From the NCBI GenBank assembly GCA_016177765.1, contig JACOUP010000008.1:1025165-1089164 (forward strand): a DNA stretch of 64,000 nt. Reading direction: 5' to 3'. Within the stretch, counting starts at the first letter, position 1; each line of letters starts with the position of its first letter. Under the pieces are notes generated by a model. That model saw only the letters and a program-made list of their open reading frames with translations. It was not told the origin of the DNA and ran no database searches. A program made the translations under genes and the position numbers. Source of the stretch: Deltaproteobacteria bacterium. Its GTDB lineage: Bacteria; UBA10199; JACPAL01; JACOUP01. Positions 123 through 62,755 of this stretch are shown here, piece by piece.

Positions 123-123
123 G

Positions 124-1347: not shown

Positions 1348-1406
1348 CACCCATTGGGTGAATCACCCTTGGGTGAACCACCCCTTGACACGAGGTGTCA
1401 CCCCCC
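1348..1406. repeat. Intergenic cluster of three overlapping copies of the GGGTGAAyCACCC palindrome family
   Basis: gggtgaatcaccc at 1356-1368, gggtgaaccaccc at 1371-1383, ggtgtcacccc at 1394-1404. Confidence 0.7.
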
Positions 1407-1424: not shown

Positions 1425-3673
<2,249 letters not shown>

Positions 3674-3708
3674 GGATGGTTCGACTAAGCTCACCATGTC
3701 CGTGAATC

Positions 3709-4347: not shown

Positions 4348-6096
4348 ATGGCACCAAAAATAATTATTGTCGGCGGCGGTTTGGCCGGTCTCTCGGCAAC
4401 GATCAAGGCCTGTGAGGCCGGGGCGACGGTCGATCTCTTTTCCATTGTCCCGGTTCGTCGTTCCCATTCGGTTTGCGCCCAAGGGGGGATCAATGCCGCC
4501 GTGAATACGAAGGGGGAAGGGGATTCCCCGGCGCAGCATTTTGATGACACGATCTATGGCGGCGACTTTCTGGCCAACCAGACTCCTGTCAAAAACATGT
4601 GTGAAGCGGGTCCCGGGATTGTTTTTATGTTGGACCGGATGGGGGTTATGTTCAACCGGACGCCGGAGGGGCTGATCGACTTCCGCCGGTTTGGCGGGAC
4701 TCTCTACAACCGGACCGCCTTTGCCGGGGCGACGACAGGCCAACAGATGATGTATGCCCTGGATGAACAGGTCCGCCGTTTTGAATCGGAGGGAAAGGTC
4801 CGAAAGTACGAAGGGTGGGAGATGCTTTCCCTCGTTTTGGATAACGAGCCGGCCTGTCGCGGGATCACGGCGATCAACATCGCCACGATGGCAACAGAGA
4901 GTTTCAGGGCGGATGCGGTTATTCTGGCGACCGGCGGGGTCGGTCTCATCTACGGGAAGAGCACCAATTCGATGGTTTGCACCGGGACGGCAACCTCGAT
5001 GGCGTACCAGCAGGGGGCCTTTTACGGCAATGGGGAGTTTATCCAGGTTCACCCGACCGCCGTTCCGGGCGAAGACAAACTTCGTTTGATTTCTGAATCG
5101 GTCCGCGGTGAGGGGGGACGGGTCTGGGTTTACAAGGAAGGAAAGGGTGGTTCACCCGAACCATGGTACTTTTTGGAAGAATGGTATCCGAAGTATGGCA
5201 ACCTTGTCCCGCGCGATGTGGCGACCCGGGCGATCTTTAAGGTGGTCTACGAACTCAAGCTCGGGATCGATGGCCAGCCGAAGGTTTACCTGGATGTCTC
5301 CCACCTCGACCCAAAAATTTTGAGGGCCAAGCTGGGCGGCGTTCTGGAAATTTATGAAAAATTTGTCGGTGAAGACCCGACGAAGGTCCCGATGATGATC
5401 TTCCCCGCGGTTCACTACACGATGGGGGGGCTTTGGGTCGACTTTAACCAGATGACCAATATCCCGGGACTCTTTGCTGCGGGGGAATGTGAATACCAAT
5501 ATCATGGGGCGAACCGGCTCGGGGCTAATTCCCTCTTGTCCTGTATCTACGCCGGTATTGTCACGGGCGGTTCTGTCGTCCGGTATGCCCAGGGGATGAA
5601 GAAGGGGTCGGATGCTGCCCCGGGGCGCTTCTTTGAAGAGGAATTGAAAAAACAAAAAGAGGCTAGTAACCGGCTGATGACGGCCGACGGTTCTGAAAAC
5701 CCGCACCTTCTGCATAAAACTTTGGGGGAATGGATGACGGAGAATGTGACTGTCATCCGTTATAACGAAAAACTGGCCAAGGCTGATGACAAAATTCAGG
5801 AACTGATGGAACGGTACAAAAACATCGGACTCCCGGACAAAACCGGTTGGGCGAATAATGAATTGATTTTTGCGCGTGAACTCTACAACATGCTGGTCTT
5901 GGCGCGCGTCATCACGCAAGGGGCCTTCCGCCGGAATGAGTCCCGCGGCGCCCACTACAAGCCGGAGTTTCCGGACAGGGATGATGCCCATTGGCTGAAG
6001 ACCACCAAGGCCCGCCATACGCCGAACGGTCCGGAGTTTACGTATGAGGAAGTGGACACTCAGTATATTAAACCAAGGCCGAGGAAGTACGACTAA
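4348..6096 (+). CDS. sdhA: Succinate dehydrogenase flavoprotein subunit
   Basis: N-terminal FAD fold IIIVGGGLAGL, HYTMGGL and RLGANSL motifs; 582 aa. Confidence 0.92.
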   Translation: MAPKIIIVGGGLAGLSATIKACEAGATVDLFSIVPVRRSHSVCAQGGINAAVNTKGEGDSPAQHFDDTIYGGDFLANQTPVKNMCEAGPGIVFMLDRMGVMFNRTPEGLIDFRRFGGTLYNRTAFAGATTGQQMMYALDEQVRRFESEGKVRKYEGWEMLSLVLDNEPACRGITAINIATMATESFRADAVILATGGVGLIYGKSTNSMVCTGTATSMAYQQGAFYGNGEFIQVHPTAVPGEDKLRLISESVRGEGGRVWVYKEGKGGSPEPWYFLEEWYPKYGNLVPRDVATRAIFKVVYELKLGIDGQPKVYLDVSHLDPKILRAKLGGVLEIYEKFVGEDPTKVPMMIFPAVHYTMGGLWVDFNQMTNIPGLFAAGECEYQYHGANRLGANSLLSCIYAGIVTGGSVVRYAQGMKKGSDAAPGRFFEEELKKQKEASNRLMTADGSENPHLLHKTLGEWMTENVTVIRYNEKLAKADDKIQELMERYKNIGLPDKTGWANNELIFARELYNMLVLARVITQGAFRRNESRGAHYKPEFPDRDDAHWLKTTKARHTPNGPEFTYEEVDTQYIKPRPRKYD

Positions 6097-27450: not shown

Positions 27451-28515
27451 ATGGCGACAGCGGCAGAAATTACAGGGCGTTTAAGGGGGACGATGGCCGA
27501 TGGTTACTTGAGCCAACCCGAGTGGAGTAGCTTCAAGGAAGGGATCAAGACCTCTTGGTCGGATGGGGGTCGGGAAGGGCTCAATGATTTTATTGGGGAG
27601 GTTGCGGGACAACCACACTGGGTGGTGGATCCTGCCATTTTGGAAAAATGGAACAAGGGGACAGGTCAGGGGATTGATAGTGATCCTGTTCGGGTTATTC
27701 AGGGACGGCAAGAACAGGCCTTGAGGATTAAGGGATTGTTGGAAGAAAAAGTGGGCGACAAGGTTTTGAGTGAGGCCGATTGGGATGGTTTAAAGAGTCA
27801 GATCGGTTCTGTTTGGGACAAGGGGGGGTTGGCGGGGATTATTTTATTCTTGGCAGATAACGGGGATCGATGGACGATTGAAGGAAGCTTAAAGACAAGG
27901 ATTGAAGAGAAGCTGGTCAGTAAGGGGTTTGTTCAGGCCTCTTTGTTGGGTGGGATCAAGGTGCATGAGGAGGCGGCACCGCCAGCCGCTCCGGCGCCTC
28001 CTCCCGCTCCTGCTGATGGGGGATATGATTTTGAGGTGCTTGATCTGAGTGATGATAGGGCCCCGGCAGAACCGGCACCTCCGGCAACGTCGAGAATGCG
28101 AGGAGGGGATCCTGAACCTCCTCCAGCGCCTCCATCACCCGCCGCCGGACGACCCGTGAGAGGGACAACCGCTTGTAGTGAGGCCGTCAAAGGGCGGGTG
28201 AATGATGCCCTGTCCCCCTTGTTGGGGCCCCATGGGTCGCTGAAGGATATCAAAGCCAAGTCTCAATTCCAACTCCTCCATGGAAAGATAGATATCGAGT
28301 TTCATATCCCGGAGGCGGAATCCGATGGGACAATGTCTATTGAGGTCGATGTGTCTCAGTTAAAAGGACCACAGGATCACACTTCCTTTGGGGAAGCGGT
28401 TCTGGGAAAGCTACGGGCCACTGCCAAGTTGACCTCTGTGGGGACTCCAGCGGGGGAAGGAACCTGTTTCTACAAAGTTCCGGTACCGGTTGAAGGGAGT
28501 ACTTCAGGGTATTAA
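27451..28515 (+). CDS. Paralog A of a tandem 4-gene family: novel ~170-aa N-terminal domain, Pro/Ala linker, unique C-terminal domain
   Basis: AAAGGG ribosome-binding site. Conserved MADGYLSQ...WSDGG...WDKGGLAGIILFL N-domain shared with the three downstream genes. Confidence 0.7.
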   Translation: MATAAEITGRLRGTMADGYLSQPEWSSFKEGIKTSWSDGGREGLNDFIGEVAGQPHWVVDPAILEKWNKGTGQGIDSDPVRVIQGRQEQALRIKGLLEEKVGDKVLSEADWDGLKSQIGSVWDKGGLAGIILFLADNGDRWTIEGSLKTRIEEKLVSKGFVQASLLGGIKVHEEAAPPAAPAPPPAPADGGYDFEVLDLSDDRAPAEPAPPATSRMRGGDPEPPPAPPSPAAGRPVRGTTACSEAVKGRVNDALSPLLGPHGSLKDIKAKSQFQLLHGKIDIEFHIPEAESDGTMSIEVDVSQLKGPQDHTSFGEAVLGKLRATAKLTSVGTPAGEGTCFYKVPVPVEGSTSGY

Positions 28516-30687
28516 ATGATGACCTCCATTAATGAAAAACTGACACAGGCAATGGCGGATGGTTATCTGAGCCAATCCGAGTGGGATAGCTTCAAAGAAG
28601 AGATCAAGTCCTCTTGGTCGGATGGGGGTCAGGAAGGGCTCAATAGTTTTATCAGTGATGTTGCCGATCGTCCGAATTGGGTAGTCGATCCTGCCATTTT
28701 GGAGAAGTGGGGCAAGGGGACAGGTCAAGGGATTGAGGGGGGACCTGTTTCGGAGATCCAGAAACGGCAGGACCAGGCCGCCCGTGTCAAGGCCTTGCTG
28801 GAAGAGAAGGTCGGGGACAAGGTTCTGAGTGAGACCGATTGGGACAGTTTAAAGGGAGAGATCGGTTCTGTTTGGGACAAAGGGGGGTTGGCCGGGATTA
28901 TTTTATTCTTGGCAGGTGATCATGATAATCACTGGGAGATTGAGGGGAATTTAAAGACAAGGATTCAAGAGAAGTTAGTCAAGCCTGGGTTTGTGAGTAT
29001 CGCACTTTTGAGTGGGATCAGGGTGCATGAGGAACCGGCCGCTCCACCACCACCGCCTGAACCTGCGGCGGAACCGGCACCAGAACCGATTCTTCCGCCT
29101 GCCGCAGGAACAGCGAGGCCAGACAGTCTTACTATTGATGAAGAAACCGGTCCGGGGGCGGGATCGCCTCCACCACCGGCCGCGCCACCTGCTCCTCCCG
29201 AGGCGGCCGCTCCACCACCTACTCCTCCTCCCCCTGCAACGGCTGAACGGCCCCTCAAAGCGGGCGAGGCGAGGGTCAAATGGCAGATTACCGACGGGGA
29301 TGGACACCCCCTGGCAGGGGTGACAATCACGTTGGGGGGGGAGGCCTCCGATGTTGAAGGAATGCCCCCTTATTCTGACCTTGTCGATGGAAATCCTCTC
29401 ACAACGGATAAAGACGGTTTCGCCTCCATCGACCTCCCCACAGGGCTCTTAAAATACACGACAGGGAAAAAGGGTTATCAGACCTATACCGTTGACGATG
29501 GGGCAGATGTAGATTTGGCGCCGGGCAAGATCTATACCCGTAATGTCCGGATGCCGCCGGTTGCCCATGTCCCGATTGATTGGAGGGTGACCGACCTCTT
29601 GAGGGAGACCTACCTGGAGGGGGCGACGGTTACCGTGGAAGGGACCTCCAGCGGCGACGGGGAAAGTTATGGTCCTGTTGTCTATCATACGGGTAAAGAG
29701 GGTCGGCTTCAGCGTGAGGAGGGTGGCAGAACAATCGCTCCGGCAACTATCCCTACCGGGGATTGTCGGGTCAAGGTCCACAAAGAGGGGTATCGGTCCT
29801 TTCCCGACGCGAGGATCACTATTGAAGGGGACAAGGTTGTCCGGCAATTTGCCCTGGTGGAGGAGGGACTCCCGTTACCGTCTGAGCTTGACGGGCAGAA
29901 CGTCTTTCGGTTGATTCGGGATACGGAGCTCCTTGTCCCGACAAATCGTGGATTCATCGGGAAAAAAAAGGACGATGACAAACGGAAGGCAATTAAGGAT
30001 CTGGAGAAGACAAGTAGCCTCCTGGGGATCGCCTTTGAAAAAACAGAGGCCCTAAGGCATGGAACGGTTGCCGCCGATCTTCTCCGGCTTGCCGAAGAGG
30101 TGGATTCCCTCCTTGTGGATCTCTACGATTCGATCCTGGATGCCGACGCGATTGTCCAGTGTCACCGGAGGCGCCTGAATCGGGAGGAGACGTCGTCGGA
30201 GCTGCAATACCTCCTCGCCTCGGCGCTGGATGTCTTGGGGGGACAACAGATATCAAGGGCCTCTATATTCCAGAAGTATGCCGAGGCGGTCCTTTATTAC
30301 AAAAAGTTGGGAGAAAAGGACCCTCATTACGACGAGGCCCAAAAGGCGTTAGGAAAGTTGGGGTATGTTGCCTTTCTGCCGAAGGTGACCTCCCTCTTTA
30401 ATCAGATCAATGCTGGAACATGGTCATCCATAAGGGAGACACTGCAGAGACAAGGCGGCCCTCAACAGGTAGAGGTGGGCCTTCGTGTGGATGATGATGG
30501 TTTTGTGGACGAGGTTGAGACCGATCCGAGGGCCTACCCTTTGGAAGCATTCTTCAGGGGGCGGAATATCGGGGTCTTCAGAAACCCTGAGAATGGAGGA
30601 AGGAAGGAAGAATCCTACCCCCTCGCCTTTGATATTGATTTTTCTGGGGATACCCCGAGGCTGATCTTGCCGGATATAGGGCCTTAG
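28516..30687 (+). CDS. Paralog B: same N-domain, Pro/Ala linker, carboxypeptidase-regulatory-like beta domains and a TPR-like helical tail
   Basis: About 85% DNA identity to paralog A across the N-domain. G8 tract at 29334-29341. Confidence 0.7.
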   Translation: MMTSINEKLTQAMADGYLSQSEWDSFKEEIKSSWSDGGQEGLNSFISDVADRPNWVVDPAILEKWGKGTGQGIEGGPVSEIQKRQDQAARVKALLEEKVGDKVLSETDWDSLKGEIGSVWDKGGLAGIILFLAGDHDNHWEIEGNLKTRIQEKLVKPGFVSIALLSGIRVHEEPAAPPPPPEPAAEPAPEPILPPAAGTARPDSLTIDEETGPGAGSPPPPAAPPAPPEAAAPPPTPPPPATAERPLKAGEARVKWQITDGDGHPLAGVTITLGGEASDVEGMPPYSDLVDGNPLTTDKDGFASIDLPTGLLKYTTGKKGYQTYTVDDGADVDLAPGKIYTRNVRMPPVAHVPIDWRVTDLLRETYLEGATVTVEGTSSGDGESYGPVVYHTGKEGRLQREEGGRTIAPATIPTGDCRVKVHKEGYRSFPDARITIEGDKVVRQFALVEEGLPLPSELDGQNVFRLIRDTELLVPTNRGFIGKKKDDDKRKAIKDLEKTSSLLGIAFEKTEALRHGTVAADLLRLAEEVDSLLVDLYDSILDADAIVQCHRRRLNREETSSELQYLLASALDVLGGQQISRASIFQKYAEAVLYYKKLGEKDPHYDEAQKALGKLGYVAFLPKVTSLFNQINAGTWSSIRETLQRQGGPQQVEVGLRVDDDGFVDEVETDPRAYPLEAFFRGRNIGVFRNPENGGRKEESYPLAFDIDFSGDTPRLILPDIGP

Positions 30688-30740
30688 TCCCCCTCACCCC
30701 AACCCTCTCCCGCAAGGGGAGAGGGGGAATTTGTCAATTT
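30688..30740 (+). terminator. GC-rich hairpin terminator after paralog B
   Basis: CCCTCTCCC-gcaa-GGGGAGAGGG with outer arms TCCCCCTC / GAGGGGGA and a T-rich tail. Confidence 0.55.
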
Positions 30741-30783
30741 TCTTGATCTCAGCGGTCTGATCTTATAGGGATCATCGTTAGCG

Positions 30784-32253
30784 ATGGCCCCCTCCGGTGT
30801 TTCTGCCACTGTTTATGACAGTCTATTCGAGAAGATGTCAGACAATCATTTTACCTCGTCTGAGTGGGATGGTTTGAAGAATTCAATCAAGGATCACTGG
30901 TCGGATGGGGGTCAAGAAGGTCTGGATCATTTCATCAGGGAGGCGGCTTCTCGGGCCGGTTGGGTGGTTGACCTTCCGGTGGTGGAGAAATGGAGGGGGG
31001 CAATCGGTTACGGTCTCGACGAGAAGTCTGTTCATACGGTCTGGGTGAGGAGTCTGCTGGAAGAGAAGGTCGGGGACAAGGGTGATTCACCTAAGGTTTT
31101 GAGTGAGGTGGACTGGGATGACCTGAAAGATGAGATCAGTTCGGTCTGGGACAAGGGGGGGTTGGCGGGGATCCGGTTATTTCTCTCCGGGTGTGGGGGA
31201 CGATGGACGATCGAGGGGAGTCTCAAGACAAGGATCCAGACCAAACTGGTTGATACAAATTTTATTGAAGCCGCTTTATTGAGTGGGATTGCGGTCTATA
31301 CACCACCCCCTCCACCGGTTCCTGAACCTGGGCCGCCAGAACCCCCGGCGGTAAGGCCTCCGGCACCACCCCTGCCCCCTGCTGGTCGCTTGGCCCCAGT
31401 CCTGCCCGGTGGGCCGTTGCCACGCAAACCGGTAGTCCGGTTATCCCTCCATCTGGTGGATAAATCCAACAAACCGATTTCAGGGGCGGAGGTCACCTTT
31501 GGCGGGACGGCGACGGATGGGACGGCGTATTCCCTCCTGGGGAAGGTCACGACGGACAGAAACGGACGCTTGAAGCGGGCCGAATTTCATCCCGGGAAGG
31601 TCACTCTGCATATTTCCAAAGAGGGGTACCAGCCGGTCGATCAGGAATTGGAGATTAGGCCGAAGATGACTCCGGAGATGACGATTGATCTCCAGAGACT
31701 GATCGACCTGGAGGGAGAGGCCCTTTTTGCCGAGGTGAAAGAGATCCTGGCCCAAGGGAAGAGGTCAGAGAGGGGTCCGCCGGCCGTTGTTGAGGAGGCG
31801 ATGGTGGCGTTGCGGGAAGGGGAGGAGAGGCTCAAGGCCTTTCTGGCAAAGGTGGCTCACCCAAAGACCGATTCGAGGCAGGATCGATCCCTCCGTGAAG
31901 AAGGGGAAGAACTCTTGAAACGTCTCCTTTTTGGTCTCGCCCAGCTCTATGAAAAGCAGGAAAAATACGACGAGGCGATCGCTATCTACCGGCAACGGTC
32001 AAAAGAGGGTTTCTTCCGTTATCTGATCGCGGGGGACCTTGAGGCCAAGGGGGATTTGGTTAAGGGGGACAAGCCGGCCGCTGTTGCCTCCCGTCGAAAG
32101 GCCTACACAGAGGCAATTGCCGAGTACCGGGCCTACGTCGACTGGCATGACCGGCAGGGGGCGAGACTGGAAGGGATCTCCGTGAGGGAGGAGGCGGAAG
32201 AGGCGATAGCCCGGCTCCAGAAGGCCCTTGCGGCAAAGAGGCCCAACGAATAA
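30784..32253 (+). CDS. Paralog C: same N-domain (with a 15-nt palindromic-element insertion), Pro-rich linker, carboxypeptidase-regulatory-like domain and TPR-like tail
   Basis: MSDNHFTSSEW... N-domain; GDSPK insertion at 31078-31092 relative to A, B and D. Confidence 0.7.
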   Translation: MAPSGVSATVYDSLFEKMSDNHFTSSEWDGLKNSIKDHWSDGGQEGLDHFIREAASRAGWVVDLPVVEKWRGAIGYGLDEKSVHTVWVRSLLEEKVGDKGDSPKVLSEVDWDDLKDEISSVWDKGGLAGIRLFLSGCGGRWTIEGSLKTRIQTKLVDTNFIEAALLSGIAVYTPPPPPVPEPGPPEPPAVRPPAPPLPPAGRLAPVLPGGPLPRKPVVRLSLHLVDKSNKPISGAEVTFGGTATDGTAYSLLGKVTTDRNGRLKRAEFHPGKVTLHISKEGYQPVDQELEIRPKMTPEMTIDLQRLIDLEGEALFAEVKEILAQGKRSERGPPAVVEEAMVALREGEERLKAFLAKVAHPKTDSRQDRSLREEGEELLKRLLFGLAQLYEKQEKYDEAIAIYRQRSKEGFFRYLIAGDLEAKGDLVKGDKPAAVASRRKAYTEAIAEYRAYVDWHDRQGARLEGISVREEAEEAIARLQKALAAKRPNE

Positions 32254-32453
32254 ATTCGTGGGCTAATTTAAAACAATTCCTCTGGAATTCCGGAAGGAAT
32301 TGTCATTGGATTAGCCGCCGAATTTATTCGGTCGGCCAATGGGAGTGGACACCCTGAGCTTGTCGAAGGGTCATTTTGAGTTTGTCAACAGACTGCTAGT
32401 CATTTCAGGCACAACTCCCCAGTTTTTCAGTCGATAATACTGATGAGGTTCTT

Positions 32454-33647
32454 ATGTCACTTCGAGACGTTGTCTCCTCTATCCCCCTTTCTGCGGTTGC
32501 CGGTCCACCGGCCCCAGGGACCGGCAGGGTTATCGGCCGTGTCCTGGATGCTGAGACCCGCAGGCCTGTCGGGGGGGCGGTTCTACAATTTAGGCGGGTG
32601 GGGCCTCCCCCCACTGAAGTAGCCGCTGCCGATTCCCCACCTCCTCAGACCTTTCACGATGCCTTAGTCGATAAGATGTCGTTCGATAATTATCTGAGCC
32701 AGATGGAGTGGGATGATCTGAGGGATAGAATCAGGGCCGATTGGGATAGTGGGGGTCGGGAGGGGCTGGATCTCTTTATCCGCGAGGCGGCTTCTCGGCC
32801 GAAATGGGTGGTTTCACTCCCGGTAGTGGAGAAATGGAAGAGGGCTGTGGGGTATGGTTTAGATGAAAAAGCGGTGAATACAGTCTGGGTGAGGAGTCTG
32901 CTGGAGTGGGAGGTTGCGGACGCTTTCCTGGGTGAGGCGGACTGGGATAACCTGAAAGATGAGATCGGTTCGGTCTGGGACAAAGGGGGGTTGGCGGGGA
33001 TCCGGATATTTTTAGCGGGGTGCGATGATCGGTGGGACATTCAGGAGAGTTTAAAGGCGAGGATTCAAGCAAGACTGGTGGCAACGGGGTTTATTGAGGC
33101 GGATTTATTGAAGGGGATCCGTACGTCGAAATCGGAACCACCGAGATCAATGCCGGCCGGTGGTGCCGCTGAGGCCGAAGAGGCGGCGGATGAGTTTTCT
33201 CGTGCCGGGAGTGACTTTGAGGATGGGCTGGCCGAGGCGGCAGAGGCGAGGAGGAGTGGAGCTCTCGAAGGACCGAGGGTCCTTGACTGTGACGCGCTGG
33301 CGGCGGAGGTGGGACGGATTATGGGGACTCTGGAAGGAGATTTTGGTGAGGCGATACGGGAGTTAAGGATGTCAGAGGCCACCATTGATGGGGAGATCAC
33401 GGTCCATATCCCCTTTTCGCCGATCTCGCCGCCCGTTCCGCCCCGCATGATCATCCGGCAGGCCCGTCTTTTTTCCCCAAAAAGGGTTGATGAGGCGGCG
33501 GTTCAAACATTTAAGGAGAGGGTGCGGGGGATTCTCAACAATGCCTTTGAATCCGAGGGGCTTCAGGCGAAAGACGAAAGAGGATGCCTTGTCGCTTGGA
33601 CGATCAAGCTTCCCGAACGGACGCGTGTTGATGGTGATTCGGAATAA
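32454..33647 (+). CDS. Paralog D: N-terminal leader carrying linker and carboxypeptidase-regulatory-like remnants, same conserved domain, acidic unique C-terminus
   Basis: The conserved domain starts at MSFDNYLSQMEW (Met at 32676). The upstream 74 codons resemble a shuffled cassette fragment. Confidence 0.6.
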   Translation: MSLRDVVSSIPLSAVAGPPAPGTGRVIGRVLDAETRRPVGGAVLQFRRVGPPPTEVAAADSPPPQTFHDALVDKMSFDNYLSQMEWDDLRDRIRADWDSGGREGLDLFIREAASRPKWVVSLPVVEKWKRAVGYGLDEKAVNTVWVRSLLEWEVADAFLGEADWDNLKDEIGSVWDKGGLAGIRIFLAGCDDRWDIQESLKARIQARLVATGFIEADLLKGIRTSKSEPPRSMPAGGAAEAEEAADEFSRAGSDFEDGLAEAAEARRSGALEGPRVLDCDALAAEVGRIMGTLEGDFGEAIRELRMSEATIDGEITVHIPFSPISPPVPPRMIIRQARLFSPKRVDEAAVQTFKERVRGILNNAFESEGLQAKDERGCLVAWTIKLPERTRVDGDSE

Positions 33648-37092: not shown

Positions 37093-37790
37093 CGAAAATA
37101 TTCCTTTTCGACACGGTAGAGGAGATCTTCCGAGAAGTTTTCCACCTGACGGATGTAGGTTCGTGTCTTGCGGACGAAGTAGTTGTAAAAAATGGCGGCC
37201 GGGATGGCGGCGGCCAACCCCATCGCTGTGGCGATCAGCGCCTCTGCGAGATAGGGTCCAACGACGGCGAGCGACGAAGAGCCGGCCCGGCCGATCTTCC
37301 AGAAGGCGGTCAAAATCCCCCAGACGGTGCCGAAGAGACCGATAAAAGGGGTAAAACTGCCGGTGGTGGCCAGAAACGGGAGGTAGCGTTCGATCCGTTC
37401 CACTTCATCTTCGGTGGCCCGTTCCACCTTCCGCCGGATTATTTCTGCCGTGGCCGTTCCGGATTCCTTGGATGAATCACCCTTGCGGCGAAAGAGATCG
37501 GAGACACCCCTCCGGAAGATATTGGAAAGCGGGTTGTCATCCCCTCCGCGCTTGATCAACTCCTCCAGGTTGGTGGTTCGCCAGAAGAGTTCGGCAAAAC
37601 GGAGGGAACCCAACTGCCACCGTTTCATCTCCTTGGATTTGTAGAAAATAATAGCCCAACAACCGATCGAAAAACCGACCAGGATCATGAATGTCAGTTT
37701 CACGACAGGGTCGGCACCCCAGAGGATCTGGAGGAGATGCCCGTTTTCACCGAGAGAACTGCTTGTTGCCGCAAACGCCTGAGAAGTCAT
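37089..37790 (-). CDS. tolQ: MotA/TolQ/ExbB proton channel
   Basis: Three TM helices and the conserved C-terminal TAMGLAAAIPA motif; overlaps tolR. Confidence 0.85.
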   Translation of the reverse strand: MTSQAFAATSSSLGENGHLLQILWGADPVVKLTFMILVGFSIGCWAIIFYKSKEMKRWQLGSLRFAELFWRTTNLEELIKRGGDDNPLSNIFRRGVSDLFRRKGDSSKESGTATAEIIRRKVERATEDEVERIERYLPFLATTGSFTPFIGLFGTVWGILTAFWKIGRAGSSSLAVVGPYLAEALIATAMGLAAAIPAAIFYNYFVRKTRTYIRQVENFSEDLLYRVEKEYFR

Positions 37791-37880
37791 AGGAATTTCC
37801 CCTCCTGAAGCAAAACAACTTTATTCATTTGGTCTCAAAAGTCAATTGCTAAGGGTGAATTACCCAAGGTTTATTTTTGA

Positions 37881-39068: not shown

Positions 39069-40919
39069 TTTTTTGACCGCCTTGACGATATGCGGCGCCG
39101 AAATCCCGGCGGCGTCGACCAGCTCTTCAGGCTTTCCAGAAATTGGCATCTTGGTGACCGCCAGTTTCAGGATCGGGACGTTCCTTTCTCCGGCAAAGAC
39201 GTTTAAAACGGCATCTCCCAGCCCCCCCTCAAACCAGTGGTCTTCCACAACAACAATCCCCTTTGTCTCACGGCCGGCCTTCAGGAGCGTGGCGGCATCA
39301 ATCGGTTTGACGGAGTAACAGTCAATCACCCGGACCGGGATCCCTGCCTGGGCCAGTGTCTGTTCGGCGGTGAGGGCCTGATTCAGGGTGACCCCGGCGG
39401 CGACCACGGTGACGCGGTCATTCTTTGAAGAACGGATTGTCTTGGAACCACCGATCGGGAACTTTTCACCCGCCGGGTAGAGAACCAGCGTCGCCGGACG
39501 GTTGGTCCGGAGGTAGACAATCCCCTCCTTTTTGATCGCCTCTTCTACGAGTGCGAGCGTGGCGACTGCATCGGAGGGGTAGAGGATGGTGCTACCATGG
39601 ATCGCCCGGAACAAAGCGATATCCTCCAGTCCCATCTGTGAGGCGCCATCCTCACCAATGGAGACCCCGACGTGGGAACCGACAAATTTGACATTGGCCC
39701 TCGAGACGGCGGCCATCCGGATCTGGTCAAAACCGCGTGTCAAAAAGGCGGCAAAGGTGGAGGCAAACGGGATCTTTCCCCGTCCCGCCAGACCGACCGC
39801 GACACCGACCATATTTTGTTCGGCGATAAACATTTCCCAGTAACGGTCCGGCCACTTTTTGGCGAAGATTTCGGCAAAGGTCGAATTTTTGGTATCCCCG
39901 TCGAGACAGACCACCTCCGGGTACTGGACGGCCAGGGCGGTGATCGCCTCCCCATAAGCCTTGCGGGTGGCGATCTCTTGGCCCAGACTGTAAGAAGGGA
40001 GAGGGATCGGGTGGGTCCCCCTTTCCTGCTTCTCTCTTCTTTTTGGTTTAATTTTTTCAGGTTTTTCAACAATCCCGACAGAATTGGTATCAACCGGCCC
40101 CAAGGACTGGAGCGCCTTTTCAAGATCGGCCTTGGAGAGTGCCTTGCCGTGCCACCCCTCCTTGTCCTCCAGAAAGGAGACCCCCTTCCCCTTGAGGGTC
40201 CTGGCGACGATCATCTTGGGTGAACCACCCTTTGGGTTGCCCCGGATTGCCAGGGCCTCTTTGAAGGCGGCATCAATTTCAGGGAGGGAGTGGCCGTCCA
40301 CCGTGATAACATGCCACCCAAAGGAGGCGACCCTTTCGGCATAGGTCTTGACGTCATGGCCACACATCGTCTCACCGCTCTGCCCCATCCGGTTGACGTC
40401 AATAATCCCGACCAAGTTATCAAGATGATAGTGGGAGGCCAGCTGGATCGCCTCCCAGACCGATCCCTCCGCCATTTCCCCATCCCCCAAAAGGACGAAG
40501 GTACGGTAGGGGAGCTGATCGAGACGGGCATTGAGCGCCATCCCGACGCCGATGGATAACCCCTGTCCGAGACTGCCGGTGGCCGCTTCGGCATAGGGGA
40601 ATTGCGGGGTCGGGTGCCCCTCAAGAGGGCTTCCCAAACGGCGGAGCCGAAGGAGTTCTTCCTGTTTGATGACACCGGCGGCGCCATAAAGGGCATAGAA
40701 GAGCGGGGCGGCATGCCCCTTGGAAAAGATCAGACGGTCGTTGTTGGGATCTTTGTGATGGTCCAGATCCGCCTGGAGATATTTGAAGAAGAGCACTGTC
40801 ATCAGGTCGGTGGCTGAGAGCGAAGAGGAGGGATGGCCGGAACCGGCTTCTGAGGTGGAGATCAGGGTATAATAGCGAACCAACCGGGCGAGTGAGGAGA
40901 GATCATTGACGACAGACAT
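39057..40919 (-). CDS. tkt: Transketolase
   Basis: GSGHPSSSLS TPP motif; 620 aa from the Met at 40919; contains the palindromic element at 40218-40230. Confidence 0.88.
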   Translation of the reverse strand: MSVVNDLSSLARLVRYYTLISTSEAGSGHPSSSLSATDLMTVLFFKYLQADLDHHKDPNNDRLIFSKGHAAPLFYALYGAAGVIKQEELLRLRRLGSPLEGHPTPQFPYAEAATGSLGQGLSIGVGMALNARLDQLPYRTFVLLGDGEMAEGSVWEAIQLASHYHLDNLVGIIDVNRMGQSGETMCGHDVKTYAERVASFGWHVITVDGHSLPEIDAAFKEALAIRGNPKGGSPKMIVARTLKGKGVSFLEDKEGWHGKALSKADLEKALQSLGPVDTNSVGIVEKPEKIKPKRREKQERGTHPIPLPSYSLGQEIATRKAYGEAITALAVQYPEVVCLDGDTKNSTFAEIFAKKWPDRYWEMFIAEQNMVGVAVGLAGRGKIPFASTFAAFLTRGFDQIRMAAVSRANVKFVGSHVGVSIGEDGASQMGLEDIALFRAIHGSTILYPSDAVATLALVEEAIKKEGIVYLRTNRPATLVLYPAGEKFPIGGSKTIRSSKNDRVTVVAAGVTLNQALTAEQTLAQAGIPVRVIDCYSVKPIDAATLLKAGRETKGIVVVEDHWFEGGLGDAVLNVFAGERNVPILKLAVTKMPISGKPEELVDAAGISAPHIVKAVKKLLM

Positions 40920-40992: not shown

Positions 40993-42369
40993 ATGAAACA
41001 GATTGCTGTCGCCCTTTTGCTGGGGATTTCTTTTTTCGCCATGCCGTCTCTGTCACCAGCGGCCGATAAGAAGGAAAAGACAATCACCAGGGAGCTGTAC
41101 CAGGACCTGGAGCTCTTTGCCAAGATTCTCCATCACGTCAAGAGTGATTACGTCGAGGATGTCAAGGACAAGGAACTGATTGAGGGGTCTATCCGTGGGA
41201 TGCTCACAGCGTTGGACCCCCACAGCCTCTTTATGCCGGCGGAGGTTTACAGGGAACTTCGTGTTGATACGGAGGGAAAGTTTGGCGGGATCGGGATCGA
41301 GGTGACCTCCAAAGACAATTTTCTGACGGTGGTGGCCCCCCTGGAAGGGACACCGGCGGACCGCGCCAGGATACGGGCGGGAGACAGGATCCTCAGGATC
41401 AACAAAACCCCCGCCAAGGGGATGTCACTCACCGATGCCGTCAAGATGATGCGGGGGGAGAGGGGGAGCCGGATAACCCTTGTCCTGCAAAGAGAGGGGA
41501 GCAAACCGTTTCAGGTCACCCTGGTGAGGGATCTGATCCGGATCCAGAGTGTCCGGAAGGAATTGGTGGATAAAAGATACGGCTATGTCCGGGTGACTTC
41601 CTTCCAGGAGGGGACGGCCAAAGAGCTGGATCGTGCCCTGCGGGAACTCGAAAAAAAGGTGCCCGGGGGACTGGCCGGTCTTGTCCTGGATCTTCGCAAT
41701 AACCCCGGTGGTCTCCTGGATGAGGCCGTTGAGGTGGCAGATCAGTTTCTGGAGAGCGGGACGATTGTCGTGACCAAGAGTCGCCATAACAAGGAGGTCG
41801 ACAAGAAAGAGGCCCGAAGGGAAAAGACGCATCCCGCTTATCCCCTCATTGTGATGGTGAACGGGGGGAGCGCCTCGGCGGCAGAGATTGTTGCCGGGGC
41901 CCTGCAGGATCATCGTCGAGGCATCCTTTTGGGAACGTCGACCTTTGGTAAAGGTTCCGTGCAAACGGTCTATGAGTTGGGGGATGGTTCGGCCCTCAAG
42001 CTGACAATTGCCAAATATTACACCCCCTCCGGCCGGTCGATCCAGGCCCAGGGGATCAAACCGGATATTGAGGTGGGTGAGGTGAAGCCGGAAATGATTG
42101 CCTCTACGGCGACTACTCCGCGGGAGCGGGTGGTTCGCGAGAAGGACCTCAAGGGGCACCTGGAGGGCGGTTCGCCCAAAGGGGAAGAAGAGGATTCCGA
42201 AAAAGAGGCAGAAACCTCACCCAAGGGTGGCTCACCCAAGGGTGGTTCACCCAAAGGCAAAAAGGGAAAAGCAACCCCGGAGCAAAAACCGGAAGACTAC
42301 CAGAAGGAAACCGCCCTCAATTACATCAAAAGCTGGGATACCTTTCAATCAAAAGGCCGGTTGCGTTAG
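40993..42369 (+). CDS. ctpA: Carboxyl-terminal processing protease (S41, PDZ domain)
   Basis: Signal peptide, PDZ domain, S41 motifs (GGSASAAEI); C-terminal GGSPKG repeats. Confidence 0.85.
   Translation: MKQIAVALLLGISFFAMPSLSPAADKKEKTITRELYQDLELFAKILHHVKSDYVEDVKDKELIEGSIRGMLTALDPHSLFMPAEVYRELRVDTEGKFGGIGIEVTSKDNFLTVVAPLEGTPADRARIRAGDRILRINKTPAKGMSLTDAVKMMRGERGSRITLVLQREGSKPFQVTLVRDLIRIQSVRKELVDKRYGYVRVTSFQEGTAKELDRALRELEKKVPGGLAGLVLDLRNNPGGLLDEAVEVADQFLESGTIVVTKSRHNKEVDKKEARREKTHPAYPLIVMVNGGSASAAEIVAGALQDHRRGILLGTSTFGKGSVQTVYELGDGSALKLTIAKYYTPSGRSIQAQGIKPDIEVGEVKPEMIASTATTPRERVVREKDLKGHLEGGSPKGEEEDSEKEAETSPKGGSPKGGSPKGKKGKATPEQKPEDYQKETALNYIKSWDTFQSKGRLR
42165..42252. repeat. Three copies of the palindromic element (one variant plus two in tandem) inside the ctpA 3' region
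   Basis: gggcggttcgccc at 42165-42177, gggtggctcaccc at 42225-42237, gggtggttcaccc at 42240-42252. Confidence 0.8.
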
Positions 42370-45701: not shown

Positions 45702-46100
45702 ATGTTCCGCATGAAGCCGGTTTCAACCAGGACTTTGCAGGTCTTTAAACAGTGGGGCAAGGAAGGGGGGAAGAGGCGGGCCAAAAACCTTTCCCCTTCG
45801 GCCCGTCAGGCTATTTCGAGGCATGCCGCTCAAACGCGTTGGGGTCTTCAAAAAACTCATGAGTCATCCATGTCCAGTGTGCGTCTTAGAGGAGCGCTTT
45901 GGGGAAATCCGGTCTATTTGGAAGAGGTTCTCTCGCATGGAAGCTTGAGAGACTGGAAAGAACTGCGCCGCAGAATTGCCGATCACCCCTTTGGCGCTGA
46001 AGCCGGTGCGCTCGAGAAAGTTCTTAATGCGATCAGTATCTACGGAACCATTTCTTTATGGAAAGGGATCCTTGGCAATTTACGGGGGAATTTTTTGTGA
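45702..46100 (+). CDS. Hypothetical small protein, candidate partner of the AbiEii toxin
   Basis: Overlaps the downstream AbiEii gene by 43 nt. Confidence 0.35.
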   Translation: MFRMKPVSTRTLQVFKQWGKEGGKRRAKNLSPSARQAISRHAAQTRWGLQKTHESSMSSVRLRGALWGNPVYLEEVLSHGSLRDWKELRRRIADHPFGAEAGALEKVLNAISIYGTISLWKGILGNLRGNFL

Positions 46101-46771
46101 AAAAAGAAGCCGATACATTTCCTGCATGGGAAAAATTACTTTCCGCACAAGCTCTCTTCCAATCCCATTTTCCGGAGTCTGTTCTTGTTGGCGGAACAGC
46201 CGCGGCACTTCATGCCGGTCATCGTGTCTCTATGGATGCCGATCACGTTTTGCCTGATCTTAAAAAACGATTCGCCGAAATTTTGGCTCAAGTGGAGAAA
46301 GAAGCCGGCTGGAAAACAAGCCGGATGGAACCTCCGGTTCTCATTTTGGGAAACTTTCAAGGGGTCCGGACCGGTATTCGCCAGTTGATCCGGAAAAAAC
46401 CACTGGAGACAACGATGGTGAAAGGACTTCGCGTCCCGACGGTTGCCGAAATTTTAAGAATCAAAGGCTACTTAATTACCAAGAGAAACACGACGCGGGA
46501 CTTTATTGATTTTGTCGCCCTTTTCGACCATTTCGGGGCTGAAAAATCTTTGAAGGCGCTGGCTTCATTGGATGATCTCTATCCGCAAGAGGGGGAGGAG
46601 TCTGTATTAAAACAACTCGCCACACAGCTGGCTGAACCCAAGCCCTGGGATCTGACAGAGACTGATTTAAGTCACTACAAATCACTCAAAGAACCTTACA
46701 CCGACTGGAATGAAATCAAACGGCGAGCAGGGGCGGCGGGTCTTCGAATTTTGGAATCACTTTTGGTTTAG
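46058..46771 (+). CDS. Nucleotidyltransferase AbiEii/AbiGii toxin family (DUF1814)
   Basis: Signature LVGGTAAALHAGHRVSMDADHV (GGTAL...HR.S.D.D); 237 aa. Confidence 0.7.
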   Translation: MERDPWQFTGEFFVKKEADTFPAWEKLLSAQALFQSHFPESVLVGGTAAALHAGHRVSMDADHVLPDLKKRFAEILAQVEKEAGWKTSRMEPPVLILGNFQGVRTGIRQLIRKKPLETTMVKGLRVPTVAEILRIKGYLITKRNTTRDFIDFVALFDHFGAEKSLKALASLDDLYPQEGEESVLKQLATQLAEPKPWDLTETDLSHYKSLKEPYTDWNEIKRRAGAAGLRILESLLV

Positions 46772-46786
46772 GGTATTTGTTTTATG

Positions 46787-58141: not shown

Positions 58142-59223
58142 AAGAAAAAGTGCATCTTGAGCAGAATCTGGTCATCCCCCAAGGGACCGGTTCCCAGATT
58201 CGCCCGATAGAGTACCGAAATCTGCGAATAGGACAAGGGGTATAAATCGATACCGAACCCGATCCGGTGTTGAAGGTCGCCTCCGACCAGATAATTCGGG
58301 TCCAAATAATCGTAAACCGTTTTGAGAGAAAGACCGTCGATGACCTTCCAGTCCAGCTCGCTATAACCGGCAATGACCCAGGCGTTACTAGTCGTGGTAC
58401 TGTTGGGATGGTTCTGCTGGAGGTCCACTTCTCCCAGTCCGATCAGGGGCCCCAGGGTGAACCCGCCATGCAGGCCGGTGGAGATCAGCCGGGTCGTTGA
58501 TCGCTTATTGAATTGAAAGGAACTACCGACCCGTCCCCGTTTTCCAACCCACTGAACGGTTGTTGTGATCGCCTTGGCGGCATTTTCGTCGTTGGTGCCT
58601 CCGGGGACGCCGTTGGAGACGGCGGTAATGATCTCCAGGGGGCCCGGGGCGATGCCGATCTCACCACCGATATCCTGATTGGCAAAGGTGGCATTGAAAC
58701 TGGTCCGGATCGGGCTTGAGTCATCATCCACCCGAAGGCCGTAGGGAAGGTTGATCCGCCCCACCTTAAAGTAGAGGCCGGCGGGGAGCTGATGGACCAT
58801 CCCGAACAGTTCGCGGCTCGCGGTATTGGCGAGGTCATAATCGGCGTAGGCAGTCAGGTGCTGGCCGGCGTTCAGCTCCAAATAGAGGCTTCCTTGAGGG
58901 ATCTGGATATTGTTGGTGTTGACGGTTCCGAGGGTGGTGGTGTCATGGACCCGAAAATCGGCCCCGATCGCGGCAAATTTATTCAAGCGGCCGTTGGGTA
59001 AGTCCAGAGGGACAAGGTCTCCTGGGTGAATCACCCTTGTACTTTTCAACGAGAGTTTTCTGGCAAAGAGGAAACCCCCGGTATCGTTCCGTTTGCCGGC
59101 CCCGGTTGGATTGACGTGGCAGGAGACGCAACCGACCCCCTCCTGCACGGCATAACGGGGGAGGGCCCAGAGAGGGGGGGTGATTAGAAGGGTTGCCAAA
59201 AAGGCCGCTGGGAAAAGGCGCAT
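58138..59223 (-). CDS. Fused monoheme cytochrome c / outer-membrane beta-barrel (Cyc2-like)
   Basis: Signal peptide, CVSCH directly after it, alternating amphipathic strands, C-terminal ...KMHFFF; ATGA coupling with the downstream cytochrome. Confidence 0.55.
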   Translation of the reverse strand: MRLFPAAFLATLLITPPLWALPRYAVQEGVGCVSCHVNPTGAGKRNDTGGFLFARKLSLKSTRVIHPGDLVPLDLPNGRLNKFAAIGADFRVHDTTTLGTVNTNNIQIPQGSLYLELNAGQHLTAYADYDLANTASRELFGMVHQLPAGLYFKVGRINLPYGLRVDDDSSPIRTSFNATFANQDIGGEIGIAPGPLEIITAVSNGVPGGTNDENAAKAITTTVQWVGKRGRVGSSFQFNKRSTTRLISTGLHGGFTLGPLIGLGEVDLQQNHPNSTTTSNAWVIAGYSELDWKVIDGLSLKTVYDYLDPNYLVGGDLQHRIGFGIDLYPLSYSQISVLYRANLGTGPLGDDQILLKMHFFF

Positions 59224-59719: not shown

Positions 59720-60356
59720 AGATCTGTTCTTCTTTGAGGGGCAGTGTTACCGCCAGGGTTTTCGGTTTGTCGCGGGGTTAGATGAGGCAGGTCGTGGTTG
59801 TCTTGCCGGTCCTGTCGTTGCCGCCGCCGTTGTTTTTCCACCCTATTTAACGATTGCTGGCGTGGATGACTCCAAAAAATTAAGTCCGCAGAAGAGGGAA
59901 GAACTCTACCCCCAAATTCTGGAAAAGGCGATCGCCTGGGGGGTTGGGGTTGTGGGGCCGGATGAGATTGACCGGATGAATATCCTTGAGGCCTCCAAAA
60001 AGGCGATGGAGCTGGCACTCGGTTATTTAAAGGTTCCGCCGGATCACCTCCTGATCGACGGTAATTTCAGGATCACCTCGGCCTACCCGCAAACACAGAT
60101 TATCCGGGGGGATTCCCTTTCTTTTTCAATCGCCGCCGCGTCGATCATTGCCAAGGTCACCCGGGACAGGACAATGGTTGAGTGGCAGGAGAGATACCCG
60201 CAGTTCCAGTTTTCACGCCATAAAGGGTATGGGACAAAGATTCATTTGAAGGAGATTCGGACCTACGGCTTAACCGAACTTCACCGGAAGAGCTTCGCCC
60301 CCTGCCGTCAAATCTCCATGGGTGAATCACCCTTGCTGTCTATTTCAACTTTTTAA
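59658..60356 (+). CDS. rnhB: Ribonuclease HII
   Basis: [16 protein letters not shown] active-site motif. True start is probably near 59720 (non-ATG). Palindromic element at 60320-60332 encodes the C-terminal GESPL. Confidence 0.8.
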
Positions 60357-61273: not shown

Positions 61274-62755
61274 CTAACCTTCCCTGAGTTTCAGTTCCCG
61301 TCCCCAGATCAGGTCGACCGCCTTGAGGGCGGAGAGGACCTTTCCTTCCGTGCCGAGCCAGGGGAGGAGGTTTGGCCCGACGGTCAGCATGTTATCGTAG
61401 GGAGAGGTGAGGGTCGGGAAGAAAAAAGAGGGGGTGTAGGCAACGCAGGCGCCGGCGCCCTTCCGGAAGGCGTTGTATTCCTCGGAGCTTTCCGGGAAGA
61501 GTCCATCCTCTTCCGGCAAAATCTTGGGGGAAACCCTTTTGAGCGAACTACCGGCAAACGGAATCAGTCTGTGGAGAAGACCGGTGATCTCTTCGTGGAG
61601 TTTTTCAAACTCTGGCACAGTCATTGACAGTTTTTCCGGCGGCAGAAAATAACTCACAGAAAGCAACGTGTCTCCTTCTTGCTTCATGTTTTTGGGAATC
61701 GGTTGCCGGTTCAGCTGCAGGTAGTTGCTACCGGATAAAGGGAGCGACGGGTCCTGGATCAAAAGAAGATTTTCCTTCATCGGGGTTGGCAGGACCTGAC
61801 TGTCAACAACATACAAAAGATTCATCCGGTGAGTGACCGGCGCCAGTCGGGACGCCTTCTTTTTAAATTGCATTGTGCGGAATCCTTGGGTGAGCCACCC
61901 TTTGGGGGTCATCTGGTAGATCTTCCGGTTCGGAATCATCTGGTAAATCTTTTGGATATTGGTATTCCCCAGCAGGTATCGGCACCGAGTCACAAAACCA
62001 CACTGGGGGAGTTTGACCCCTTTGACCTCTTTTTTCTGAATGACCAGATCGAAACCATCCGTTGCCCTCTGAACCGCTCCTCCAAAGTATTCAATCTTTT
62101 CGTAGAAGATTTTTTTCAGTTCCGTTAGCCCTCCCTTGACCGAGTAGGTGGCGAAGATTTCCGGAGAGAGAAGAAAACAGAGTTGAAAGAAAAGCGGATC
62201 CATGAGGACCCCCTGAGACAGAAACAGGAGTTGGGACCGGATGAAACTGGCTACCTCCACAGGCGTCTTCTCCACAAGGGAAGAGAGCCTTTGATAGGGA
62301 AGGGCCCGGGCCAGTTTGACAAACCTCTTTTTTTCCTTTTTGTCCGCGATGGGAAGTGAAGGGGCCAGCAGCTCCAGCGCCGTTTTGCGAAACCCTTCAG
62401 CCTCGTTGTAGAGGTTTTCAAAGAAACCGACAAGCTCCGGGAATTCGCGTTGAATCTCCTTGAAGAGGATGGAGGGATTGGGCGAAACATCCAGCCGATT
62501 CCGCGGAAAGACGACCTGGTAACTGACCCGATTTTTCTCAATGATCTGCAACCGCCCGTCCGGGATCATCAATTTGCCAAGGATACTTTTGAAAAGCCGG
62601 GATTCAAGGCCGGTCAAGACGTTCGGTTCAAAACCGCCATCGTCTTCCAACACAAGAACACTCATCCCCCGTTTGGCGAGCAGAGTCGCCGCCAGGATGC
62701 CGGAAAGGTCACTCCCGACAACGAGGAGGTCGCAAAAATTGGGGGTCATTGTCAT
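61274..62755 (-). CDS. FAD/NAD(P)-binding oxidoreductase (phytoene-desaturase-like)
   Basis: N-terminal DLLVVGSDLSGILAATLLAKRG dinucleotide fold; palindromic element at 61888-61900. Confidence 0.6.
   Translation of the reverse strand: MTMTPNFCDLLVVGSDLSGILAATLLAKRGMSVLVLEDDGGFEPNVLTGLESRLFKSILGKLMIPDGRLQIIEKNRVSYQVVFPRNRLDVSPNPSILFKEIQREFPELVGFFENLYNEAEGFRKTALELLAPSLPIADKKEKKRFVKLARALPYQRLSSLVEKTPVEVASFIRSQLLFLSQGVLMDPLFFQLCFLLSPEIFATYSVKGGLTELKKIFYEKIEYFGGAVQRATDGFDLVIQKKEVKGVKLPQCGFVTRCRYLLGNTNIQKIYQMIPNRKIYQMTPKGWLTQGFRTMQFKKKASRLAPVTHRMNLLYVVDSQVLPTPMKENLLLIQDPSLPLSGSNYLQLNRQPIPKNMKQEGDTLLSVSYFLPPEKLSMTVPEFEKLHEEITGLLHRLIPFAGSSLKRVSPKILPEEDGLFPESSEEYNAFRKGAGACVAYTPSFFFPTLTSPYDNMLTVGPNLLPWLGTEGKVLSALKAVDLIWGRELKLREG

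Follow-up and report, generated by a model that had tools for sequence, protein, structure and literature searches.

A single unit of a 15-nt dispersed palindromic repeat has almost certainly been inserted, in frame and as a derived change, into one member of a four-gene paralogous array carried by an uncultivated bacterium, whose metagenome-assembled genome (MAG) is labelled 'Deltaproteobacteria bacterium'. The array lies in a 64-kb stretch of contig JACOUP010000008.1, which was analysed in its entirety and is hereafter called the window. Its members are all encoded on the + strand and are designated paralog A (27451..28515), paralog B (28516..30687), paralog C (30784..32253) and paralog D (32454..33647). 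Paralog C carries an N-terminal domain (N-domain) common to A, B and D, followed by a Pro-rich linker, a CarboxypepD_reg domain and TPR repeats. The inserted unit resides at positions 31080..31094 of paralog C and is oriented on the - strand. On the + strand the sequence is GGGTGATTCACCTAA; taken in the orientation of the unit, on the - strand, it is TTAGGTGAATCACCC. The encoded peptide is (K)GDSP(K), and we refer to the inserted residues as GDSPK.

Alignments of the four N-domains, made with both DNA and protein sequences, reveal that paralog C has a single private segment of 15 nt or five residues. Across positions 31072-31099 its reading frame is GGGGAC AAG GGT GAT TCA CCT AAG GTT, in which the codons from the first AAG onward specify K99 G D S P K104 V. 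The corresponding empty sites (with a slash at the junction) are GGCGAC/AAGGTT at 27754-27765 in A, GGGGAC/AAGGTT at 28813-28824 in B and GCGGAC/GCTTTC at 32916-32927 in D, and the alignment gaps opposite the C segment place the junctions between about 27759 and 27760, between 28818 and 28819, and between 32921 and 32922, respectively. These alignments bear out the central claim of a preliminary description of this DNA, namely that a 15-nt insert is present in C and in none of A, B and D. The protein reading given there, in which the three empty paralogs share a sequence of the type EEKVGDKVLSE, holds for A and B (EEKVGDK-VLSE) but not for D, which reads EWEVADAFLGEADW (EWEVADA-FLGE) and nevertheless lacks the same five codons. 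Because AAGG is found on each side of the insert, five equivalent registers exist, ranging from 31078-31092 to 31082-31096. The preliminary description placed the element at 31078-31092, which is AAGGGTGATTCACCT, and yet quoted codons, ggtgattcacctaag, that correspond to 31081-31095. Both are valid registers, with a 3-nt slip between them.

The direction of this change can be judged from the relationships among the genes. Paralogs C and D have in common an 8-residue deletion relative to A and B and are 64% identical in the protein alignment, and on these grounds they are sister genes. When 1.84 billion representative proteins were searched exhaustively with a profile, approximately 20 members of the N-domain family were recovered in total and no close orthologous array was found, and therefore six distant homologues picked from these family members served as outgroups. 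In the resulting alignment of 10 family members, comprising A to D and the six outgroups, the five insert columns are filled in C alone. Given this distribution and the sister relationship of C and D, the insert is a gain in C rather than an ancestral feature. The opposite history, in which the segment is ancestral and has disappeared from A, B and D, had been set beforehand as the outcome that would overturn the claim. It would require at least two exact independent losses, and within the reach of these data it is excluded.

The inserted bases belong to the dispersed family by every measure we applied. A 19-nt weight matrix was built from the copies in the window, with strong copies defined as those scoring greater than 23 bits and with five shuffled windows serving as the control. 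The C copy scores 28.0 bits, which equals the scores of canonical copies, whereas the maximum in the shuffled windows (n=5) is 19.0. This agrees with the earlier proposal that the additional codons are a unit of the repeat family. The C copy matches the family at 18/19 positions, there is no local template for the inserted bases, and the only departure from the consensus is a synonymous Pro change in which CCT replaces CCC. An AlphaFold model of the C N-domain (pLDDT 91.1, pTM 0.87) depicts residues 97-107 as a non-helical link between helices 80-96 and 108-119, and such a link is predicted to be where five extra residues are easiest to accommodate.

The 15-nt consensus of the repeat unit, read on the strand of the unit itself, is TYGGGTGARYCACCC, and the opposite strand reads GGGTGRYTCACCCRA. 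It consists of a G+C-rich stem of 5 bp, a 3-nt loop and two fixed flanking bases. The arrangement GGGTG-N3-CACCC occurs 11 times in the window, compared with 0.10 expected from base composition and 0.16 expected from the actual counts of GGGTG and CACCC. When spacings from 0 to 11 between these two pentamers were scanned, none other than 3 gave more than one occurrence. A search with the 13-mer allowing up to two mismatches returned 28 strand-matches, versus 3.3 +/- 2.0 in shuffled sequences. The weight-matrix scan identified 14 strong copies in the window, against a best shuffled score of 19.0, and 11/14 are located within open reading frames (ORFs), including those for malate dehydrogenase (MDH), SdhA, transketolase and TolQ.

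Two of these copies, both in highly conserved core enzymes, provide filled-versus-empty comparisons as clean as that of paralog C. In the MDH gene (2729..3673), the unit at 3071..3085 on the + strand, TCGGGTGAACCACCC, corresponds to an exact 5-residue insertion, SGEPP, after the residues PNA, and three solved MDH structures (4plh, 4plt and 4ros) read KKYCPNA-----FVIVVTNPLD or equivalent, without the five residues. In the sdhA gene (4348..6096), the unit at 5145..5159 on the - strand, GGGTGGTTCACCCGA, is the reverse complement of TCGGGTGAACCACCC, such that the MDH and SdhA inserts are the identical 15-mer. The encoded protein reads VYKEGK-GGSPE-PWYF, again an exact 5-residue insertion. The closest genome locus (L007) lacks this insert, as do 44/44 of the nearest SdhA homologues (73-79% identity), which read GK-----PWYF, and apart from GGSPE no 5-column insertion in the SdhA alignment is confined to a single sequence. 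The preliminary description took the element to insert into coding DNA and to be tolerated there, a view that is thus supported by paralog C, where the site falls in a non-helical link, and by the exact 5-codon insertions in MDH and SdhA.

The window holds further genic copies. The transketolase copy (40216..40230, + strand, with the gene on the - strand) is read PKGGSPK, and in the comparison with human TKT it falls within a gap of 8 columns. The gene for an S41 peptidase contains a tandem dimer (42225..42254, - strand) that is read KGGSPKGGSPK and is preceded by a half unit, TCACCCAA, at 42217-42224. A copy in the RNase HII gene (60318..60332, + strand) is read MGESPL and lies past the last residue matched by family models. 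Both of these latter examples occupy C-terminal tails beyond the conserved domains. The tolQ copy (37468..37482, + strand, with the gene on the - strand) has one stem mismatch and is read KGDSSK, and it shows no clear gap versus distant TolQ structures. Paralog C itself harbours a second copy at 31850..31864 on the - strand, which has a matrix score of 23.1 and is read in another phase, AAG GTG GCT CAC CCA AAG, or K V A H P K. Two genes for hypothetical proteins, both on the - strand, contain + strand copies at 59022..59036, read in the phase R-V-I-H-P, and at 61886..61900, read in the third phase as G-W-L-T-Q.

Outside of genes, a tandem dimer, TTGGGTGAATCACCC TTGGGTGAACCACCC, is situated at 1354..1383 on the + strand between the genes for citrate synthase and isocitrate dehydrogenase, with a degenerate third unit at approximately 1338-1353. 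Directly 3' of this dimer, positions 1384-1410 (CTTGACACGAGGTGTCACCCCCC) include a TTGACA hexamer resembling a -35 element, which is formed in part from the 3' end of the repeat, and the repeat may therefore supply promoter sequence to the isocitrate dehydrogenase gene. The same segment also holds a second small palindrome, GACAC-GAG-GTGTC. A degenerate intergenic copy of ambiguous orientation, GGGTGAATTACCC, is found upstream of tolQ at 37853..37865. In addition, a site in an aldehyde dehydrogenase gene (19527-19539, GGGTGCTCCACCC) has both stems, with an atypical CTC centre, atypical flanks and a score of 14 bits. No clean gap is evident at this site versus distant solved structures, and it is probably either a chance occurrence or a decayed copy, so it is left out of our counts.

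Several characteristics of the copies bear on what the element is. The consensus of oriented copies with their flanks is cCTT-GGGTGA(A/G)(C/T)CACCC-TT(G/T), and because the flanks are direct rather than inverted repeats, the unit has polarity. The stem is fixed and the loop is variable (AAT, AAC or AGC). As DNA, the stem-loop has a predicted stability of -4 kcal/mol. Stem mismatches in genic copies (the insert in paralog C, the tolQ copy and the copy at 31850) are uncompensated, and hence the hairpin seems not to be maintained once a unit has been inserted. Tandem units are arranged head-to-tail with a period of exactly 15, and adjacent units differ in their loops (AAT with AAC, and AAC with AGC), which argues against simple slippage of one copy. 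In MDH and SdhA, and also in a different organism (locus L089), the AAC core is found together with a TC/GA variant of the flank. Since this variant recurs with the same core at different sites, the two flanking bases are part of the unit, and the target site is not duplicated. A model in which a 13-nt core is bordered by a duplicated TT target was rejected for the same reason, as the flank variant travels with the core. When filled sites were compared with empty references (A and B for paralog C, locus L026 for MDH and five relatives for SdhA), the registers allowed at the three sites were found to intersect at TYGGGTGARYCACCC inserted 5' of TT (3' of AA), give or take one base.

The signal conserved among these copies resides in DNA rather than in protein. 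The same codons recur from site to site, and copies are present at unrelated loci and in intergenic DNA (1354-1383 and 37853). All three reading phases are occupied, in most cases as G-(G/D/E)-S-P, with (K/R)-V-x-H-P and G-W-L-T-Q in addition, and the G+C-rich unit is found even inside a gene of a genome of 38.6% G+C. The phase that contains TGA is represented by a sole copy (61888), a GGC/GCT variant that reads TGG and so avoids the TGA stop. Because the unit is exactly five codons long, the frame is never shifted. Copies probably survive where the added peptide is harmless, which is mostly in the G-(G/D/E)-S-P phase and in loops and tails. Of 13 genic copies, 10 or 11 are oriented to encode K-G-x-S-P rather than L-G-E-S-P-L, an excess that fits selection for hydrophilic loops.

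The window itself is ordinary core chromosome that includes tricarboxylic acid cycle genes, tol-pal, tkt, pfk and trmD, and the source MAG, which has a contig of 1.355 Mb carrying MBI1909992 to MBI1910048, encodes proteins that are singletons at 90% identity. A scan of metagenomes with the dimer uncovered three further organisms that carry the repeat (loci L087, L088 and L089). In L088 ('Deltaproteobacteria bacterium RIFCSP*_40_28', 38.6% G+C), an array within the RNase R gene is read EGEGGSPKGDSPGGG and is followed after its dimer by the incomplete unit GGTGGTT, and locus L100 is grouped with L088 as a carrier of genic copies. In L089 (46% G+C), a dimer in the tail of a deformylase is read KGDSPKGGSPE. 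In L087 (50% G+C), three copies in a giant ORF are read LGESPLGESYLG. This entire 6.3-kb locus (1-6297) is one ORF of 2098 codons on the minus strand that is open at both ends. A syntenic relative of L088 (L098, 44% G+C) has one copy, which is read PLGESPI. The RNase R array is common to L088 and its sister gene L097 (88% identical), wherein the two arrays have different point changes, and seven more distant RNase R homologues have a 9-column gap at this position. Thus, copies are inherited and then decay by point mutation.

In approximately 80 kb of DNA syntenic with the window, taken from its closest relatives (L007 and L090-L093), no copy was observed, and 1.33 Mb of other loci contained no copy above 20 bits. 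Locus L099 likewise counts among the syntenic non-carriers. Scans of viral contigs gave nothing for the dimer and a single match to the 19-mer, which was taken as chance. This patchy pattern suggests either bursts within particular lineages or a horizontal spread of the copy-making machinery. An assembly or adapter artefact was considered as the source of the repeat and was rejected, given that the arrays are present in independent NCBI, JGI, ENA and Logan assemblies, that reading frames are respected, and that point divergence has accumulated between sister genes that are 88% identical. The Logan contig L095 ends within the intergenic tandem, at base 1380 of the window, and the Logan contigs L001 and L002 end 12 nt past the stop codon of paralog C (32265). 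The tiny repeat, and perhaps also the paralog array, therefore fragments assemblies.

How might such a unit be multiplied? A defined 15-mer cannot arise repeatedly by mutation, and thus it must be copied from a template. On balance, we favour the view that the family spreads by some dedicated copy-and-insert process, and we hold it with moderate confidence. In such a process, the copying of the unit, in the form of a single-stranded hairpin, would fall to a nuclease or transposase of the HUH (Y1) type that acts in trans and is structure-specific, for which the enzymes associated with repetitive extragenic palindromic (REP) elements (REP-RAYT) and with IS200/IS605 or IS91 offer models. The hairpin would be pasted beside a short AA (TT) target without duplicating that target, and existing unit junctions would themselves be good targets, whereby tandems would be built. 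Enzymes of the HUH type that recognize hairpins best fit the lack of target duplication, the AA/TT context, the conserved stem with a free loop and the self-similar junctions. The target rules of the REP-RAYT, IS200/IS605 and IS91 families are used here as a lead and not as a test, and we regard this specific single-strand route as possible but doubtful.

Several observations weigh against a dedicated process of this type. Pfam and NCBIfam scans revealed no transposase, RAYT or other HUH protein among the ORFs of the window. Unit orientation in the window is 8 (+) to 5 (-) under a GC skew that is positive throughout, and therefore copies do not display a replication-strand bias like that of IS200/IS605, in a sample that is small and has been filtered by selection. 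The target register rests on three sites, one of which, SdhA, fits only with AAA as its Lys codon, against AAG in five relatives, or else with a register that differs by 1 nt. To our knowledge, a 5-bp stem with a cargo of 15 nt is far below any substrate shown for known transposases. Present-day mobility was not seen, as independent Logan assemblies are 100% identical to the window, and an exact look-up of eight hypothetical empty alleles in a collection of 15 billion proteins returned none.

The alternatives to a copy-and-insert process each account for part of the evidence. It is improbable, in our judgement, that the units are products of templated patch synthesis, in which a reverse transcriptase or primase-polymerase, working from a fixed template of RNA or DNA, would extend nicks or breaks by 15-nt units, in the manner of telomerase, leaving scars that happen to be five codons long. 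Such synthesis would readily yield head-to-tail arrays with a strict 15-nt period and incomplete units at their ends (TCACCCAA before 42225 and GGTGGTT after the L088 dimer), and it agrees with an unduplicated target and with the lack of a nearby transposase in the window. However, one template is not expected to produce adjacent units with different loops (AAT with AAC, AAC with AGC), most copies are single units, no reverse transcriptase is seen in the window, and the recurrent TT/AA context would be unexpected for random breaks. More doubtful again is a favoured word akin to DNA uptake sequences or HIP1, which an uptake, methylation or repair system would enrich by biased recombination or repair and without transposition. 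The density of about one copy per 5 kb, in coding and non-coding DNA alike, does resemble those words. Uptake sequences within genes prefer one reading phase, as this repeat does, and occurrence in organisms of different G+C is expected if the word is recognized by a conserved protein. Words of this kind arise by substitution without a change in length, whereas exact 15-nt additions are evident here versus orthologues or paralogues, at 3/3 testable conserved sites. Biased recombination could spread an allele that bears the insert, but could not create the same 15-mer at many sites.

The anatomy of the unit, a palindromic core between direct TT..TT repeats, is also that of an excision footprint, as would remain after a larger transposon whose terminal inverted repeats are GGGTGA... 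had inserted with duplication of a TT target and then excised, with its two tips and the duplicated TT staying behind. In coding DNA, the 15-nt length could then reflect selection that passes only in-frame scars. We judge this very unlikely because intergenic copies are equally long and form tandems of period 15, the centre hardly varies and has an orientation (ARY with TT flanks) instead of being ragged, and the TC/GA flank occurs with the same core at three sites in two organisms, which makes the flank part of the unit. Moreover, no full-length element was seen in the approximately 71 kb of source genome that holds 14 copies. Finally, there may be no element at all, with the residues in paralog C being ancestral and lost from A, B and D, or generated by local slippage, or retained by protein-level selection for a GDSPK linker. 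The AAGG..AAGG microhomology could in principle support slippage or deletion, and peptides rich in Ser, Pro and Lys can be functional linkers. Nevertheless, the residues are absent from six outgroups, an exact loss would be needed more than once, the inserted bases match the dispersed family at 18/19 positions without a local template, and identical DNA occurs at unrelated loci, in intergenic regions and in other phases. Accordingly, we assign this last explanation a negligible probability.

Comparison with known repeats helps to place the 15-nt family. The closest known kind is the group of small dispersed repeats SDR1-8 of the Nostocaceae, which Elhai et al. 2008 reportedly described as 21-27 nt in length, with hairpin potential, and judged to be mobile from filled-versus-empty comparisons. 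The likeness extends to very short dispersed repeats (<30 nt), to insertion revealed by filled-versus-empty sites and to a limited lineage distribution. The family described herein differs in its 15-nt length, its seemingly unrelated sequence and its hosts, which are MAGs labelled 'Deltaproteobacteria' and not cyanobacteria, as well as in its multiple-of-three length, its mostly genic 5-residue additions and its period-15 tandems. SDRs have not been found outside of the Nostocaceae (PMC5861425). The work of Elhai et al. 2008 is cited in PMC5861425 and PMC3116915.

Rickettsia palindromic elements (Ogata et al. 2000), which are about 105-146 bp in length (PMC3184786), resemble the present repeat in being palindromic, in residing in frame within conserved protein genes (here MDH, SdhA and paralog C) and in being tolerated as an extra peptide. 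They are seven to ten times longer, add 35-50 residues, are confined to Rickettsia and form no unit tandems. REP sequences are imperfect palindromes of 20-40 nt that are extragenic by definition (PMC3116915, PMC3733652), and their hairpins bear a GTAG or CGTC tag at the 5' foot (PMC3733652). They are thought to be moved in trans by a single chromosomal single-strand nuclease, the Y1 HUH protein RAYT (PMC3116915, PMC3733652), and they typically border the RAYT gene. As short, G+C-rich hairpins of high copy number that do not duplicate their target, they provide the closest mechanistic model. In contrast, our unit spans 15 nt, its stem having 5 bp and its loop 3 nt, and approximately 80% of its copies are genic. 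Its 5' flank consensus is cCTT, with CGTC preceding the MDH copy only, and its neighbours are direct period-15 repeats rather than the inverted pairs of REPINs and BIMEs.

Other families are more remote. Miniature inverted-repeat transposable elements have terminal inverted repeats, an internal segment and a target-site duplication, and they are usually longer than 50 bp, whereas our 15-nt unit has no internal segment and its two flanking bases follow the subfamily (TT or TC) and not the target. HIP1 (GCGATCGC; PMC5861425, PMC4390886) is likewise palindromic, hyper-abundant in the coding and non-coding DNA of one lineage, and of debated function. However, it is an 8-nt word that is generated or kept by substitution and selection and is linked to a methyltransferase (PMC5861425, PMC4390886). 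HIP1 and uptake words originate without a change in length, and all testable copies of our repeat are exact additions of 15 nt or of two units. PARCELs are also coding repeats with dyad symmetry in their DNA, with a patchy occurrence across unrelated microbes that suggests horizontal spread, but these are 25-residue (75-nt) units in long tandem tracts of dedicated surface-protein ORFs, not single units in housekeeping enzymes. In the literature searched, which did not extend to Elhai 2008, neither the 13-mers nor the encoded peptides had a match. The repeat therefore appears to be an undescribed and unusually small insertional DNA of the source bacterium and of at least four other uncultivated relatives.

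Additional features of the array and of the window deserve mention. The common N-domain of A to D (within 27451-33647) comprises 165 residues and is all-helical, and inside it a motif of the form (D)xxLSxxEW(D)xLKxxI is repeated. It has no Pfam or NCBIfam match, it is modelled confidently by AlphaFold (pLDDT 91) from just four sequences, and a Foldseek comparison of the model with the PDB gave no significant match. Behind this domain, the paralogs have Pro-rich linkers and then differing C-terminal modules (CarboxypepD_reg, TPR or unknown). The eight residues (e.g. GRQEQALR) that are present in A and B and absent from C and D (27700-27760 versus 31020-31050) exhibit no similarity to the repeat family, and so the length differences among the paralogs are not all due to the element. 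Near the insertion site, the DNA of C is almost identical to that of B (CTGCTGGAAGAGAAGGTCGGGGACAAGG; 31040-31100 versus 28790-28830), although overall C is nearer to D. This suggests either that gene conversion has acted over a short tract between paralogues or that D has diverged faster at this location. Directly 3' of the stop codon of B (30700-30730) is a perfect G+C-rich inverted repeat, CCCTCTCCC-GCAA-GGGGAGAGGG, which looks like a terminator and is unrelated to the 15-nt family. Elsewhere in the window, toxin-antitoxin genes of the nucleotidyltransferase type are found at 46058-46771 and 60665-61237, encoding an AbiEii-like protein and a Pol-beta/NTP_transf_2 protein with a helix-turn-helix (HTH), and a HepT-like neighbour is also present in locus L096. 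At gathering thresholds, Rfam reported only two tRNAs in the window, tRNA-Gln (46786-46857) and tRNA-Gly (11761-11832), and no family of Rickettsia palindromic elements.

The insert in paralog C is one of several clean filled-versus-empty cases for the 15-nt repeat, a unit that is the smallest of its kind known to us. If our interpretation is correct, insertional DNA extends down to 15 nt, to a bare hairpin plus two bases, which is well below the size of REPs (about 35 nt) and of the cyanobacterial SDRs (21-27 nt). On a practical level, the repeat breaks short-read assemblies and inflates apparent indel differences between orthologues. A five-codon unit enters any gene without a frameshift, and its copies would thus constitute a natural experiment on loop tolerance in MDH, SdhA, transketolase, RNase R and deformylase. 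The sharp consensus, the unit subfamilies, the direct tandems and the existence of carriers beside syntenic non-carriers make the movement of tiny repeats testable by comparative genomics and oligonucleotide biochemistry. We also tentatively raise a bolder possibility, which we consider rather unlikely at present, that among the mobile DNAs seen so far this hairpin may be the smallest. It would carry no cargo and would owe its movement to a dedicated single-strand DNA enzyme, one that has spread horizontally among uncultivated groundwater 'Deltaproteobacteria' (G+C 38 to 55%), and it would continually seed 5-residue G-x-S-P loops into essential enzymes. Were this so, these bacteria would possess a natural in-frame loop-insertion mutagen, and its enzyme would be a potential tool for programmable micro-insertions.

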